Assembly (NCBI GenBank): GCA_023380305.1
Contig: JAMCQZ010000008.1
Span: 5,588-69,587 of the forward strand
Direction: 5' to 3'
DNA: 64,000 nt
Source of the DNA: Patescibacteria group bacterium
GTDB lineage: Bacteria; Patescibacteriota; Minisyncoccia; UBA6257; Colwellbacteraceae
The translations under genes and the position numbers were made by a program. Below, one piece after another: positions 7,335 to 50,055 of this stretch; within the stretch, counting starts at the first letter, position 1, and every line of letters begins with the position of its first letter. A model generated the notes under the pieces. It was not told where the DNA came from, did not search any database, and saw nothing but the letters and a program-made list of their open reading frames with translations.

Positions 7335-7387
7335 GTTTATTTTAGTTTTTTTTATTATAACATATGGGCCCACCCATATCGCCCGGG

Positions 7388-12899: not shown

Positions 12900-12957
12900 T
12901 GCATAAAGTTTGTTAAGCGACCTTTATTGATTTAATTATAACATAAACCGGGAATGA

Positions 12958-14224: not shown

Positions 14225-14421
14225 TGATTGATTTTTATTGCGACCTTTGACGGCGCGAGCCGAAAATCGATCATAACATCGGGCAGTCGTAAAAATCGCG
14301 GCTCTATAATTTTATTATATCACAACGACAATCCGTTCCCGCGGTAATTCCGGTTCGCCGGAATGGCCGTAAACCGACGCCTGGCGGTAAACAGGCTTTT
14401 CAAGGCTCAACCGCTTAATAG

Positions 14422-27924: not shown

Positions 27925-28054
27925 CGATTTGTAATTTCGCTATCAAACAACCAAAGCTGCTGGAGAGACTTTAAAGGAAAAAATCGGGCTACAAATTCAG
28001 AGTGATTTTATTATAGCACATAGCCGCGCAAAAACCATAGCAATATCCATAGAA

Positions 28055-30307: not shown

Positions 30308-31345
30308 CTAATGGCTGACCGCGGCGTTGGAATTCGCCGTTGGATTGACTTTGGCCGCTGGCTGCGCTTTACCGCGCGCGGAATCGGCCGAAGATGAATG
30401 AGGAGTAACTGCATTCAAGTTCTGCGTTTTTAAAGTCGGCAAGATGTTCTTGACAGCGTTCACAATGTCGCTTGCTGTCGGCGCGGCGGATGTTGCGGAA
30501 ATACTGTCCGTCGTTGGGGCCTGCGGCAACTGGTTCTCTGGAACGGTTTGATTTGTGGTCGTCGGCACGGCGGCCGGAGCTACGGCGGGCGTCGTCGGAA
30601 TCACAGGGCATCCCGTCATCATCTTTAGAAGAATCGGTCTTTGAAGATTATAGGCGGTGTCGCTGATTTTCTTTTCTTGATAAAGGCTGTCCAGCTCGGC
30701 AACCTTCGCGCTGATGCGGTTACAGTATTCTCCCGGAGTGCCCGCCGAAAGCCTTAACCTTTCTTGGATTTTTTCAACGGCCTGAGCCGCGGCCTGACTC
30801 TTGGTGGCGGCGACAGCCGCCGCATCCTCAATAGCGCTCTGACTCGACGAAACAGCCTCTTTGATATCCTTCGCTTCTCCAGCCTTCTGAATCAAGGATT
30901 TGAACAAATCTTCATGTTTGGCCGCAGCGTCGGTAAATTTTTGGATCAATTTATCGATATTCGGATTGTTCGAAGTATTTTTTAACGCCTCGAAATGCGC
31001 CTTCAATCTTTCCTGGCTCGCCTGGTAATTAGCGAGAGCTTTGGTAAGAGCGGTTACATTCTGCGGCTCTGTCTGATCCACGGCCTTGACTTCGGCCGCT
31101 TTTTCTTCAGCAATCTTCAACTCGGTATTGGCCTTTGCTTCAGCTCCGAAAGAAAAGGCCCTTTGGAGACTCCGCCTCCATTCCTTAAGAAAATAAAACG
31201 GGCTCGACGGCAAAAGACCCGAATCAGCCTCGGCTGTAGGGGCAGCCGTAGTCGTATCAGTCGCGGTAGTCGTAGTCTGTGCTAAGGCGTTTCCGGAAAT
31301 CAAAATGATTCCGAGAAATGCGATTAATAAAAGTTTGTTTCTCAT
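30308..31345 (-). CDS. DUF5667-domain secreted protein (coiled-coil; Thr/Ala/Pro-rich C-terminus)
   Basis: Signal peptide, then the hallmark SPFYFLKEWRR motif of DUF5667. Confidence 0.7.
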   Translation of the reverse strand: MRNKLLLIAFLGIILISGNALAQTTTTATDTTTAAPTAEADSGLLPSSPFYFLKEWRRSLQRAFSFGAEAKANTELKIAEEKAAEVKAVDQTEPQNVTALTKALANYQASQERLKAHFEALKNTSNNPNIDKLIQKFTDAAAKHEDLFKSLIQKAGEAKDIKEAVSSSQSAIEDAAAVAATKSQAAAQAVEKIQERLRLSAGTPGEYCNRISAKVAELDSLYQEKKISDTAYNLQRPILLKMMTGCPVIPTTPAVAPAAVPTTTNQTVPENQLPQAPTTDSISATSAAPTASDIVNAVKNILPTLKTQNLNAVTPHSSSADSARGKAQPAAKVNPTANSNAAVSH

Positions 31346-31361
31346 GGTTTCATTATAACAA

Positions 31362-31396
31362 ACTCCAAAACAAAAAGAGGCCCCGAAGGTCTCTTT
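31362..31396 (-). terminator. Rho-independent terminator following the small Cys-rich ORF
   Basis: Minus strand: caaaaagagaccttcggggcctctttttgttttgg (hairpin followed by a U-tract). Confidence 0.5.
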
Positions 31397-31411
31397 TTGC
31401 TTTATTTATGT

Positions 31412-31528
31412 CTATCCTTCGCTGCTACATTCGCACTCGTCAGATCTCTTGCCACAACCGCTGCAGACGCCGTTTTTGATTTCCCTGCCGCATTTTTTGC
31501 AAGGTGTGCATCCGCAAGTCTGACACAT
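31412..31528 (-). CDS. Unannotated 38-aa cysteine-rich peptide (MCQTCGCTPCKKCGREIKNGVCSGCGKRSDECECSSEG)
   Basis: Clean ATG..TAG ORF on the minus strand with 10 Cys in 38 residues, followed immediately by a terminator. Below the ORF-track size cutoff. Confidence 0.4.
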   Translation of the reverse strand: MCQTCGCTPCKKCGREIKNGVCSGCGKRSDECECSSEG

Positions 31529-31620
31529 ATTGAAGTTGACGCTTACGACCTTTCCCGCATTATAGCACGCCCCGAAAACCGATCCCGGGACCGAGCCTTA
31601 ACACGGCTTCAGGCCTGCCT

Positions 31621-31791
31621 TTAACGGACTTGACACAACTTATAGAGAACGTAAACAACAACGCCCCAGCCGATGCTCACAAAAATGGCGCCGCCCAGAA
31701 ATCCCGACAAAGAAGAGGCCAATGTTTTTCCTATCTGGAATTTAAATCGTTTGTTCTCCCTGCAAACGAACTCATCGGATATTTTTTCCAT
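31621..31791 (-). CDS. Unannotated 56-aa small membrane protein (MEKISDEFVCRENKRFKFQIGKTLASSLSGFLGGAIFVSIGWGVVVYVLYKLCQVR)
   Basis: ATG..TAA ORF on the minus strand between trpS and the Cys-rich peptide. One predicted TM helix. No strong RBS. Confidence 0.3.
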   Translation of the reverse strand: MEKISDEFVCRENKRFKFQIGKTLASSLSGFLGGAIFVSIGWGVVVYVLYKLCQVR

Positions 31792-31822
31792 ATCTAATAA
31801 TTATATCACGAAGCGCGATCGA

Positions 31823-33297
<1,475 letters not shown>

Positions 33298-33377: not shown

Positions 33378-34169
33378 CTATAATTCGGCCATTTCTCCGG
33401 GAATAACCACGATCGCCATATTCCCCAGGCTGATAAATCCGTCCTCGAATTGTTTGGTCGTCACTCGCCGGTATCCCACGCCCGGCGCTGGATCCATTAG
33501 TTCCATTCCGTTATCGTCGAACCCCACGAGCACAACGGCGTGTTCCGCGAAGATCCACGGATTTTTAACTCCGTCCGGACCGATCATCACGCCCGGAGTC
33601 CTCCGTTTGAAATCTCCCGACAGCCAGACGATGGCTGGATATCCGGATTTTATGTACGACGCCAGCTCTTCGATGTCCCAGCCGGATTTGGAAACGCTTT
33701 TGCCGAATCCATGATTAGACAAGAATTTATAAATCGGTTGGTTGTAAACACCATAGCCGTCGACATAAATCCTTTTCGGATTCGGATCGCCGACAAATTC
33801 CGACTGCGGGTTTCCCCAGACGAGATCCCCGGATTTGTTGTAATAGCGGGGTGGCTTGCTCCAACCGATTTCTTCCAAAATATCGTCCTCGGAAAAGGAA
33901 ACCCCGTAATAAAGCAGGGCCGCCCTCGCGGCCGCGGCCTCGCAGGATGCTTTGTATCTCTGGATATATTCCGGAACGCTAAGGGGAAGTGAAATCGATG
34001 ACCTGCCGGCCGGAGCCTCGTCTCCGGAAAAGGTCTTTACGGGTTCGATTACAATTCCGACATCGGCGGCCAACGGCCTGCGGTTTTCCGCCGATACCAA
34101 AAAAAAGGCGGTAACCGCCATGAAAAAAACCGAAACCAAACTTAAGATCCGTGCTTGCCTAAAATCCAT
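33378..34169 (-). CDS. Papain-like (C39-family-like) cysteine peptidase domain protein, membrane anchored
   Basis: Candidate catalytic Cys in YKASCEAAAARAALLYYG, His in EHAVVLVGFDDNG, acidic residue downstream. N-terminal TM after MDFRQARILSLVSVFFMAVTAFFLV. Confidence 0.55.
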   Translation of the reverse strand: MDFRQARILSLVSVFFMAVTAFFLVSAENRRPLAADVGIVIEPVKTFSGDEAPAGRSSISLPLSVPEYIQRYKASCEAAAARAALLYYGVSFSEDDILEEIGWSKPPRYYNKSGDLVWGNPQSEFVGDPNPKRIYVDGYGVYNQPIYKFLSNHGFGKSVSKSGWDIEELASYIKSGYPAIVWLSGDFKRRTPGVMIGPDGVKNPWIFAEHAVVLVGFDDNGMELMDPAPGVGYRRVTTKQFEDGFISLGNMAIVVIPGEMAEL

Positions 34170-34225
34170 GGATCGCTGATTGCTTAATCCTATCATAAAT
34201 AATAAAGTAAACGCTGACAACCGAT

Positions 34226-36611: not shown

Positions 36612-36698
36612 GTTCTAATTATAGCATCTTGGCGGCGACAAGGGAGAAATACGAAATATCCCGCTGGACGCGGGATATTTCCGATGAAAACCCTATAA

Positions 36699-38216: not shown

Positions 38217-38244
38217 GGGAAAATTATAGCATGAATTGCGCTCG

Positions 38245-42123: not shown

Positions 42124-42164
42124 AGTTTGATTATATCAATTTTCTTTTTAGAAAATTTGAAAAT

Positions 42165-44831: not shown

Positions 44832-45560
44832 TTACGGTTCCAAAAAATCCGGACAAATCACCGTACATTCGCCCTCGAGACAAAGAGAAACAAACGGGCA
44901 AGGCGATTGGATCAGATATTCCGCGGGAGTTTTACAATCGATGTTTCTAACGCAAGATTGATCAAGCACTTTTTCTATGCTGTAAGCTTTGATCGAATAA
45001 TGGGGTGGCAGAATAATGCTCGTATCGCAATCGCCGGCCACGCAAACCTGGTTGGTTTCCAATCCATATCCGCCGACTGCGGGATCCTTAAATAAAAAAC
45101 TTTTCGGCGGATAAACCGTAAAATACATAAAAATGAAGATCGCGAATAAAATCATTATTTTTGACGCTGTCTCGCAGCTCTTCGGAAATGGCCGCATTTT
45201 TTGAACGACCGAAGCCATGATTTCGGCCGCAACGACGCTTACAATGAAAATCGCGATATCAAGGAATAGATAGTTTTTCCCCAAGACGGCCGTGTATCCA
45301 TAAAATAGAACAACTATAGCGAATGCGGCGAAATAAACCGCTTTGGCGCGGGACAACCAAAAATTGTTTGGCTTTTGCTTGCGCCGCCACCCCTGCCAGA
45401 AACTGATAAAAGCCATCGGCATCACTGCGAGTTTCAAATGTTCCCAAACGCTTTCGTCCACCGCGGAAAACAAGCCGACGATTAACGATTGGTGAAAAAA
45501 ATCGAATGTAAAATGAAGCAATGATCCGACAACGATGGTAAAAACGATATTAAATAACAT
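44832..45560 (-). CDS. Polytopic membrane protein with extracytoplasmic Cys-rich C-terminal domain
   Basis: Start trimmed to MLFNIVFTIVVGSLLHF. Five or six TM helices. The last 80 aa contain 10 Cys (CVAGDCDT...CVRNIDCKT...CPFVSLCLEGECTVICPDF). Confidence 0.55.
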   Translation of the reverse strand: MLFNIVFTIVVGSLLHFTFDFFHQSLIVGLFSAVDESVWEHLKLAVMPMAFISFWQGWRRKQKPNNFWLSRAKAVYFAAFAIVVLFYGYTAVLGKNYLFLDIAIFIVSVVAAEIMASVVQKMRPFPKSCETASKIMILFAIFIFMYFTVYPPKSFLFKDPAVGGYGLETNQVCVAGDCDTSIILPPHYSIKAYSIEKVLDQSCVRNIDCKTPAEYLIQSPCPFVSLCLEGECTVICPDFLEP

Positions 45561-45570
45561 CGCGAATCTT

Positions 45571-46809
45571 TTAAGATTTGCGCGTGCGCTTCGCCGAAGT
45601 TTTTCTTTCCTTAGTAGTTTTGGATTTTGGGGTCTCGTCGGCTTTCGGTTGGGATTTAACAGATGATTTGCCCGGTTCGCCGCCCTCTCTAACAACCACT
45701 CCTATTTTTCCTTCTGGGAAAGCGTAAAGCCCGGGGACGGCGTCATCTCCGCTCAAAACAATGAGATTTAGTTTGGCTTGGTCCAATTTCGGGAGACACT
45801 CCGATAAAGTCGATCCTTTAACGATCGGGCCCCGGAAATTGTCGACCGTTACTGGCACGACGCCGTCCGAACCGAAGATGTCGGCGTAACACTTAAGCAC
45901 CCCGACGCAAGCGTCGTTCAATGCGCAGCCCGCGCACTGCTCAGGCTTTACTTTGGGGATAATCTCATCTTCGTCCTTTAAAGTATTCAATCGGCCGCTG
46001 GTAGCCGTCCCGATATAGCGCCTTTGCCACTCGATCAACGGCCTTACCGATACGTCTTCTATCCCCGAAAGAACGCAAAGAGGCACCGGCGCTCCGGCGG
46101 CGGTTACCGCCCTGATGCCAGCGGCCAGAAGGATCTTCAAGGCTTCCTGCAGATAAGGAGCGATATCGCTGAATTTGACGTAGATAGAGTCCTTGTTGAT
46201 CTCGGCGTTGCCGAAAAGAAGCGGGTAACCGAAAGATACGCCGTCTATCCCCGGGAATTCATGAATAATAAATTTTGCGTATTCCGGCAGATAACGATAA
46301 TTTTGTTCGATTATAATGATCGCTACATCGACATTCCGGTCGCTTTGAATGGCATATTTCATGGCTGCGCAGGTTTTTTCAAAGTCCCCTTTCTGACCGC
46401 GGGTGATACTCTCCGCTAACTCTGCGTTAGGGCCGTGAAGAGAAAAAGAAAAAGAAATCTTTTTTTTCGGATCAACCGCGATAACGGCGTCAAAAAAATC
46501 TTTATCTCCCAATCGAACGCCATTCGTCATTATGTTTAAAGAGCTCACCCTAGGGTCTTCAAGCGTCTTTCCGATGATTTCCACGAAGTCCGGATGGATG
46601 GTAGACTCCCCTCCCGTGAGAAGTAAAAATTTTCCTCCTTGGTCAAGATAACCGTTGATAATCTCCCGGGCCTCTTTGGCGTTCAACCTTGGGTAAGCTT
46701 CTTTGCCGTCGGCGGCCAGGCAGAAAACACAATTTTGGTTGCAAAAAGCTCCCAAATTGATGCTTACCATCGAACCCTCGTCGCCCTTCTTCTCTTCGGA
46801 AATTTTCAT
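45571..46809 (-). CDS. Radical SAM enzyme with C-terminal SPASM/twitch-like Cys cluster
   Basis: CNQNCVFC (Cx3Cx2C) near the N-terminus. GGE motif LLTGGEST. C-terminal CAGCALNDACVGVLKC auxiliary cluster motif. Lys/Thr-rich basic tail. Confidence 0.8.
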   Translation of the reverse strand: MKISEEKKGDEGSMVSINLGAFCNQNCVFCLAADGKEAYPRLNAKEAREIINGYLDQGGKFLLLTGGESTIHPDFVEIIGKTLEDPRVSSLNIMTNGVRLGDKDFFDAVIAVDPKKKISFSFSLHGPNAELAESITRGQKGDFEKTCAAMKYAIQSDRNVDVAIIIIEQNYRYLPEYAKFIIHEFPGIDGVSFGYPLLFGNAEINKDSIYVKFSDIAPYLQEALKILLAAGIRAVTAAGAPVPLCVLSGIEDVSVRPLIEWQRRYIGTATSGRLNTLKDEDEIIPKVKPEQCAGCALNDACVGVLKCYADIFGSDGVVPVTVDNFRGPIVKGSTLSECLPKLDQAKLNLIVLSGDDAVPGLYAFPEGKIGVVVREGGEPGKSSVKSQPKADETPKSKTTKERKTSAKRTRKS

Positions 46810-48345: not shown

Positions 48346-48400
48346 TGATTTTATTATACCAAGAAAAAAACAGGCTCCTCGAAAAAAGAGCCCGTAAAAC

Positions 48401-49973: not shown

Positions 49974-50055
49974 GGTTTGATTAATTATAGCAAGAAGGAT
50001 AAAAAAAGCGACGCCGGACGATTCTCTTCATTTCAAAACGCCGGGCAACAACCAT

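Follow-up and report, generated by a model that had tools for sequence, protein, structure and literature searches.

The stretch of DNA analyzed here, a 64,000-nucleotide segment referred to as the window, derives from contig JAMCQZ010000008.1 (assembly GCA_023380305.1, positions 5,588 to 69,587) of a Patescibacteria group bacterium. Its minus strand carries, between the gene for TrpS (31823..32893; PF00579, E 7e-59) and a DUF5667 gene (30308..31345; PF18915, E 8e-10), a small cysteine-rich open reading frame (ORF) that we designate Cys9. According to the ORF listing, its coding sequence starts with an ATG codon and extends, including the stop codon, over positions 31412..31528; the encoded mini-protein, MCQTCGCTPCKKCGREIKNGVCSGCGKRSDECECSSEG, comprises 38 amino acids (aa), nine of which (24%) are cysteines located at positions 2, 5, 7, 10, 13, 22, 25, 32 and 34 and spaced as C-x2-C-x-C-x2-C-x2-C-x8-C-x2-C-x6-C-x-C. 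Over all six frames of the window, no other 38-residue stretch is as rich in cysteine; the runner-up has six (CVRNIDCKTPAEYLIQSPCPFVSLCLEGECTVICPDFL; approximately 44840-44955, minus strand) and lies at the C-terminus of a 287-aa ORF (44832-45695). The original prediction, made from the DNA letters, had placed a 38-aa peptide with ten cysteines on the minus strand between trpS and the DUF5667 gene. The ORF is present there, and its length and cysteine richness are as claimed, but the cysteines number nine; likewise, the proposed CxxCxC, CxxC and CxC spacings are found, but with only a single separate CxC at the C-terminus. As read from the sequence, the N-terminus (MCQTCGC) is devoid of a hydrophobic stretch and therefore of a signal peptide, and the Cys9 product is best read as a cytoplasmic mini-protein.

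Cys9 is almost certainly a genuine protein gene, a conclusion that follows from the intactness of all nine cysteines in its relatives, from non-synonymous change far below synonymous change, and from the Shine-Dalgarno sites found at 79 of 83 copies. Two homologues with 72-78% identity were retrieved by a word-indexed search; 29 clusters (best E 3e-9) came from an HMMER scan that covered all 1.84 billion representatives, and 119 protein clusters from a profile search. Scans with a back-translated pattern gave 237 confirmed sites in 185,579 species genomes and at least 580 sites in metagenomes. The pattern of the genome scan fixes the first four cysteines, whose conservation is thus partly by construction, whereas the remaining five were not imposed; apart from a few exceptions, the unbiased HMMER scan agreed with this conservation. 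Each of the 84 first-retrieved loci and each of the 80 metagenome loci contained an intact ORF (34-45 codons) with the same Met start and all nine cysteines. The carriers belong to the Patescibacteria, Omnitrophota, Planctomycetota, Nitrospirota and Thermodesulfobacteriota, with host GC contents between 38 and 67%; these hosts are largely uncultured and mostly from anaerobic lineages, and the Planctomycetota among them include anammox bacteria.

Both the gene and its position are kept in the closest relatives of the window. Two Patescibacteria metagenome-assembled genomes (MAGs; loci L005 and L006) encode peptides with 92% identity to the window copy and possess the gene order C39-like peptidase ... 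trpS - Cys9 - tgt - queA, and a further locus, L085, repeats the order of the window (C39_2 - trpS - 58-aa membrane ORF - Cys9 - terminator - DUF5667); its 36-codon Cys9 ORF was left uncalled by the gene caller of that record. Conservation of the cysteine pattern in syntenic relatives had been named beforehand as the test of the proposed gene, and these three loci passed it. Between the window and L005, the proportion of synonymous change (pS) is 0.43 and that of non-synonymous change (pN) is 0.012; for the Cys9 gene of L085 the corresponding values are 0.32 and 0.012. Averaged over all 3,403 pairs of copies, pS amounts to 0.84 and pN to 0.19, and close relatives have pN/pS ratios of about 0.03. 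Selection on the Cys9 protein is strongly purifying, and synonymous change is near saturation. The Shine-Dalgarno site, often AAGGAGGTG, is correctly spaced in the 79 copies that possess it, many copies have their own consensus TTGACA-17-TAnnAT promoter directly 5' of the gene, and each alternative reading frame is closed in part of the 83 copies, staying open in 8 to 63 of them.

In the window, the Cys9 ORF reads as a separate promoter-to-terminator unit, since it possesses a promoter and a terminator of its own. An extended -10 promoter element (TGCTATAAT; 31559..31567, minus strand) was read from the sequence 30 nucleotides (nt) 5' of the ATG codon, and a good -35 element was not seen there. 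The promoter block GGCGTGCTATAATGCGGGAAAGGTCGT is the same in the window, L005 and L006, and a similar one is present in L085. A terminator scan located an intrinsic terminator (31363..31399, minus strand) with an A-tract, a 12-pair hairpin (31371-31399) that begins 12 nt past the Cys9 stop codon, and a U-tract; this is the hairpin and U-tract that the original prediction had reported 3' of the ORF. When folded as RNA, the terminator has a stability of -19.6 kcal/mol (z -3.6), which was reached by none of 200 shuffled sequences; because of the A-tract and U-tract around its hairpin, it can work in both directions. The hairpin sequences of L005, L006 and L085 differ from that of the window, and their location is the same. 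Past the terminator, an extended -10 element (TGTTATAAT; 31352..31360, minus strand) precedes the DUF5667 gene, 6 nt from its ATG, and makes this gene independent of read-through; L085 repeats the arrangement (TGCTATAAT, 6 nt, ATG). Judged from these signals, Cys9 is a monocistronic, independently transcribed gene.

The core of the family can be written as MCqxCGCxPCxxCGxxIxxGVCxGCxxxxxxCxC, followed by either a short basic or a long acidic tail, and the proteins range from about 35 to 80 residues in length (median 37 for the 83 aligned copies to which the following counts also refer). Met1, the nine cysteines, G6, P9, G14 and G24 are constant in all copies, Q3, I17 and V21 are nearly invariant, and Phe, Trp, Tyr and His are found in none. 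Six of the cysteines form three CxxC knuckles (C2xxC5-G, C10xxC13-G and C22xxC25-(G/N/K), the third with Gly in 36 copies), and the other three (C7, C32, C34) lie outside them. The tail that follows Cys34 either is short with many Lys residues or consists, in a sizeable subgroup with a total length of about 80 aa, of poly-Glu/Asp; the median net charge of the proteins is +5. The tail of the window copy (SSEG, net +1) is intermediate. Members of the acidic subgroup (P0021, P0023, P0041, P0044-P0048, P0074, P0116 and others; loci L091-L096) have poly-Glu/Asp tails of 25-45 residues that often finish in DYS, DYN or DW, and their genes stand alone, each preceded by about 270-300 nt of intergenic sequence. 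Rare variants replace C10xxC13 by CxC, lose C13 together with a deletion of four residues and thus retain eight cysteines, or, in one sequence, carry Tyr at both C2 and C10.

AlphaFold2 yielded a compact model with a mean predicted local distance difference test score of 79 for a 22-sequence alignment and of 84.8 for a 90-sequence alignment; it places a beta-hairpin (residues 17-22) between the second and third knuckles. The best sequence resemblances in the PDB, both non-significant, were to the zinc ribbon of eL37 (E 0.011) and to a miniaturised rubredoxin (E 0.09), and the structural similarities reported by Foldseek were likewise non-significant and covered only zinc-ribbon or rubredoxin segments of about 21 residues.

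Scans of the window peptide and 90 relatives against Pfam, NCBIfam and PADLOC assigned no family; for the window peptide, Pfam gave no match at E<=1 and NCBIfam none at E<=10. Every named copy in the source databases is a "hypothetical protein", and most copies have remained uncalled. Nine of ten exact sequences that were looked up, including that of the window, are absent from approximately 15 billion predicted proteins, which is consistent with an unannotated gene. Searches with family sequence strings found no publication, and the papers on small Cys-rich proteins and bacterial metallothioneins that keyword searches brought up do not describe the family. We consider it best described as an undescribed family among the small Cys-rich metal-binding proteins. 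The original prediction had offered a metallothionein-like metal binder or a zinc-ribbon mini-protein; this remains the best-supported class in view of the invariant cysteines, the knuckles and the AlphaFold2 fold, but membership in a known family is not borne out, as no profile match is significant.

Several groups of known proteins invite comparison with Cys9. SmtA, in which a zinc-finger-like fold wraps a metal-thiolate cluster, has a dedicated neighboring regulator gene, smtB. The BmtA/SmtA proteins (PF02069) resemble Cys9 as small cytoplasmic proteins with nine cysteines and without a hydrophobic core, encoded by stand-alone genes linked to metal or oxidative stress. However, SmtA has about 55 aa with two His residues and aromatics, neither of which the Cys9 family possesses, and no conserved counterpart of its adjacent regulator was seen beside the Cys9 gene. 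The prokaryotic metallothionein model PF02069 matched neither the window peptide nor any of the 90 members at E<=1, an SmtA chain was absent from the PDB profile search at E<=10, and the Zn4Cys9His2 ligand set of BmtA/SmtA is not satisfied, with His in 0/83 copies. Broad operational sequence criteria for metallothioneins (low mass, more than 15-20% Cys in CxC/CxxC, no aromatics) do apply to the family. The beta-domain of animal metallothioneins (M3Cys9) shares with it a length of about 30 residues, nine cysteines in CxC/CxxC, a Lys-rich composition and the lack of aromatics and His, but the matches to PF12749 (4/90 members, best E 0.16) are faint and non-significant and provide no evidence of common ancestry. 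Furthermore, the Cys9 family keeps its non-Cys residues and CxxCG knuckles far more strictly than metallothioneins do.

Rubredoxins, desulforedoxins (about 36 aa) and zinc ribbons resemble Cys9 in having a beta-hairpin flanked at either end by a CxxCG knuckle (in Cys9, C10xxC13G ... C22xxC25G); the rubredoxin-type knuckle pair is present in the sequence and the hairpin between them in the AlphaFold2 model. They use four cysteines for one metal, whereas the Cys9 family has five more invariant cysteines and is without an aromatic core. None of the 90 members matched the rubredoxin (PF00301), desulforedoxin (PF06397) or ferredoxin Pfam models at E<=1. The zinc-ribbon architecture, with two CxxC knuckles flanking a beta-hairpin, is predicted for the segment from C10 to C25, and the Zn_Ribbon_1 model (PF13240) gave weak matches to two of the 90 members, the best of them (E 0.0044) below threshold. 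Another group, the CPxCG micro-proteins, comprises proteins of less than 70 aa with CPxCG-type knuckles and regulatory or unknown roles. Like Cys9, these archaeal and bacterial zinc-finger micro-proteins (Haloferax/Halobacterium) are small and often unannotated, with stand-alone genes, but they have one or two Cys4 sites and belong to other sequence families, and homology to Cys9 was not detected.

When all ORFs within +/-6 kb of 82 genome loci were clustered, no partner gene emerged at more than 10 loci, and Pfam scans of 76 upstream and 81 downstream neighbors revealed no common maturase, exporter or regulator; radical SAM proteins occurred in 2. A WrbA-type NAD(P)H:quinone oxidoreductase (NCBIfam equivalog, E ~1e-98) adjoins Cys9 on the same strand at 10 of the 82 loci, in three arrangements from two phyla: Cys9-wrbA, sthA-wrbA-Cys9-hydrolase, and wrbA-Cys9 in a Pirellulales MAG. 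The second arrangement is that of groundwater Thermodesulfobacteriota (L032, L040, L057, L069, L077, L079), where the hydrolase gene is dienelactone-hydrolase-like and the cassette reaches from about 1 kb upstream to about 0.1 kb downstream of the Cys9 gene. The wrbA-Cys9 pair of the Pirellulales MAG (L037) suggests that the two genes were transferred together. A gene for the transhydrogenase SthA is found near Cys9 at 6 loci, and one for an Fe/Mn superoxide dismutase (SOD) within 4 kb at 7 loci from the Thermodesulfobacteriota and Planctomycetota. These WrbA, SthA and SOD neighbors point towards a link to oxidative or quinone stress. They recur on metagenome contigs, which add little to the association since these loci mostly resample the same lineages. 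No copy of Cys9 was found in viral contigs, GenBank phages or PLSDB plasmids, so there is no sign of mobile-element cargo. An all-against-all blastn comparison of the 300-nt upstream regions detected only lineage-level synteny and sigma-70 promoter elements, and Rfam gave nothing at the gathering score, its one match (E 0.89) being on the opposite strand and overlapping the terminator.

In view of its sequence, the Cys9 peptide very probably binds metal. With its small size, its 24% cysteine content and its lack of a hydrophobic core, it could fold only around metal ions, most likely two or three of them. Our favored explanation is that Cys9 is an independent conserved gene for a metal-thiolate mini-protein that is constructed from CxxCG knuckles and is possibly linked to metal or redox stress; taken as a whole, we give this explanation an even chance. 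The protein would act as a highly expressed metal-thiolate buffer or sensor tied to metal or oxidative/electrophile stress, and the buffer role in particular is put forward tentatively, at somewhat less than an even chance. Site 1 would be formed by C10, C13, C22 and C25 at the ends of the beta-hairpin, as in the M(Cys)4 sites of rubredoxins and zinc ribbons, while site 2 would combine the N-terminal knuckle C2/C5 with C32 and C34, with C7 as a fifth or bridging ligand. Alternatively, all nine cysteines may sit in a single M3Cys9 cluster of the metallothionein beta-domain type; three knuckles plus three single cysteines would provide six terminal and three bridging thiolates, which is the exact M3Cys9 stoichiometry. 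The assignment of individual cysteines to sites is guesswork. Met1 is probably cleaved, Cys being a small second residue, which leaves an N-terminal Cys.

A more far-reaching version of the favored explanation, which we regard as rather doubtful, would make Cys9 an unrecognised prokaryotic class of metallothionein-like proteins. In this version, about 34 residues with three rubredoxin-type CxxCG knuckles and three single cysteines would hold an M3Cys9 (or mixed Zn/Fe) cluster, and horizontal transfer would have distributed the gene among uncultured anaerobes of five phyla. The protein might then cooperate with WrbA, SthA and SOD in countering oxidants or quinones, in the role of a thiol/metal redox buffer, and its tails might direct it to different targets.

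Several observations weigh against a stress-linked metal-thiolate buffer. The context of WrbA, SthA and SOD genes is found at about 20% of the loci, mostly in related Thermodesulfobacteriota, and the neighbors in the window itself (trpS, DUF5667, tgt) are uninformative with respect to function. A well-placed Shine-Dalgarno site is missing in the window copy, in L005 and in L006, and the existence of basic and acidic tail forms is left unexplained. Moreover, the conservation of Q3, G6, P9, G14, I17, V21 and G24 far exceeds that of non-Cys residues in typical metallothioneins, and such strictness fits a specific macromolecular partner better than a metal sponge. Such a partner is envisioned if Cys9 is a zinc-ribbon adaptor, in which purely structural metal sites would hold a rigid mini-domain that binds the ribosome, RNA polymerase, nucleic acid or an enzyme, and in which the charged tail would tune or target partner binding, as in small zinc-finger regulators. 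We regard this as possible, if somewhat unlikely. It would account for the very strong retention of non-Cys positions across phyla; the Lys-rich tails with a median net charge of +5, the high abundance suggested by the strong promoters and Shine-Dalgarno sites, and the faint likeness to the eL37 zinc ribbon (E 0.011) and to small ribosome-bound zinc-finger proteins also speak for it, and the absence of a conserved gene partner is expected if the target is a housekeeping machine. However, the long poly-Glu/Asp tails of many members are a misfit for simple nucleic-acid binding, two Cys4 sites use eight cysteines and leave one surplus, and the rarity of the family (237 pattern matches in 185,579 species genomes) is odd for a partner of core machinery; the structural and sequence matches are, in addition, all non-significant. 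A redox-active iron protein, with a rubredoxin- or desulforedoxin-like Fe(Cys)4 site or a small Fe-S cluster at C7xxC10xxC13, might serve as a one-electron carrier for flavoproteins in anaerobes. The CxxCG knuckles are a rubredoxin signature, C7xxC10xxC13 is a CxxCxxC motif, the host lineages are largely anaerobic, the flavoproteins WrbA and SthA, as well as SOD, are encoded nearby in a minority of loci, and rubredoxins are found among the non-significant Foldseek matches. Yet this alternative is improbable given that no rubredoxin, desulforedoxin or ferredoxin Pfam model matched any of 90 members even at E<=1, that the aromatics which pack around the rubredoxin iron site are absent from all 83 copies, and that the ferredoxin CxxCxxCxxxCP motif is missing; furthermore, WrbA reduces quinones in a two-electron reaction and is not known to require an electron carrier protein.

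The original prediction had also considered a crosslinked-peptide precursor, that is, a ribosomally synthesized and post-translationally modified peptide (RiPP) of, for example, the ranthipeptide/SCIFF-like or lanthipeptide-like type. A short Cys-rich ORF would suit such a precursor, a C39-like peptidase gene (33378-34220, PF13529) is present about 1.9 kb upstream in the window, and a radical SAM protein is the downstream neighbor at 2 of 81 loci. However, trpS separates the C39_2 gene from the peptide, maturase, exporter and protease families are not conserved beside the gene at the 82 genome loci, and NCBIfam precursor models gave no match even at E<=10. A leader/core split and a cleavage motif are absent, with conservation running from Met1 through Cys34, and tight purifying selection across phyla contrasts with the typically hypervariable cores of RiPPs. 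The lack of a conserved maturase, transporter or partner gene makes a RiPP precursor unlikely, and we consider its probability to be very low. The least probable explanation is that the ORF does not serve to produce a protein and is instead the Cys-codon leader peptide of an attenuator for the downstream gene or a chance ORF within a small RNA. A terminator 12 nt past the stop codon of an ORF very rich in one amino acid is what would bring it to mind. Nevertheless, the amino-acid sequence is kept across phyla and host GC contents of 38-67% with synonymous change saturated, none of the other frames is open in more than 63 of the 83 copies (range 8 to 63), Rfam gave no hit at the gathering score, the downstream genes differ nearly everywhere and are unrelated between loci, and the DUF5667 gene of the window has its own promoter past the terminator. 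The low pN relative to pS and the changing downstream genes effectively refute this explanation.

A second small ORF had been claimed upstream of Cys9, and the ORF listing contains it as a gene for a 56-aa single-pass membrane protein (31621..31791, minus strand) whose one hydrophobic segment spans residues 31-49 (Kyte-Doolittle 19-mer maximum 2.13). The motif FKFxIGKTLASSLSGF and a C-terminal transmembrane helix recur in its homologues (P0032-P0035; E 2e-22 to 3e-9), and the family has no Pfam match. Between the window and L085, pS is 0.65 and pN 0.11. The 56-aa ORF is a real conserved gene and independent of the Cys9 gene. Its suggested pairing with the Cys-rich peptide was rejected, as each gene is found without the other: L005 and L006 have only the Cys gene and lack the 56-aa ORF in an indel of about 235 nt, and the more distant Patescibacteria contigs L086-L090 carry the membrane gene immediately 5' of secD-secF and lack a Cys gene in its vicinity. 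The place next to secD-secF is the YajC position in E. coli, but the topology differs through the C-terminal transmembrane helix. An extended -10 element (TGATATAAT; 31800..31808, minus strand) lies 8 nt before the ATG of the 56-aa ORF, and its mRNA is probably leaderless.

The window contains 13 copies of the motif TGNTATAAT, exclusively on the minus strand, compared with 1.1 expected. This excess, all of it on the gene-rich strand, argues for a genuine promoter type in this genome. The sites are located at 2988-2996, 7354-7362, 12935-12943, 14314-14322, 28010-28018, 31352-31360, 31559-31567, 31800-31808, 36618-36626, 38223-38231, 42130-42138, 48353-48361 and 49984-49992; three of them are the elements before the 56-aa ORF, before the Cys9 ORF, and after the terminator before the DUF5667 gene. 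Several copies lie just 6-12 nt 5' of ORF starts (2976, 31345, 31791, 38216, 42123, 49973), and this suggests that many mRNAs in the Patescibacteria-like genome of the window are leaderless. Further upstream on the minus strand, the gene for the C39-like cysteine peptidase (Peptidase_C39_2) encodes an N-terminal hydrophobic segment; it is also present 5' of trpS in L005, L006 and L085, and it is unlinked to the Cys9 peptide in other phyla. Between this gene and trpS lies a 135-aa ORF (32890-33297, minus strand; start uncertain) that belongs to no assigned family. It has weak, position-matched counterparts in L005 and L006, with which it has AIEP and GG..LC..C motifs in common, including a CxxC.

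Proteins of fewer than 50 residues are systematically missed, and the called copies of Cys9 have been labelled "hypothetical". Here, this concerns a family that spans five or more bacterial phyla, is kept by strong purifying selection and carries signals of high expression, and whose design, with three knuckles in about 34 residues, is unusual and has no counterpart in Pfam, NCBIfam or the PDB. With 34-38 residues, the proteins are amenable to chemical synthesis, so that their metal chemistry and structure can be tested directly. Should Cys9 be a zinc-ribbon adaptor, it would represent a new regulator of a core process. Should it be a metal or redox buffer, it would represent a new type of metallothionein-like protein and a candidate participant in the handling of metals and oxidative stress by poorly understood anaerobes, including the Patescibacteria with their reduced genomes.

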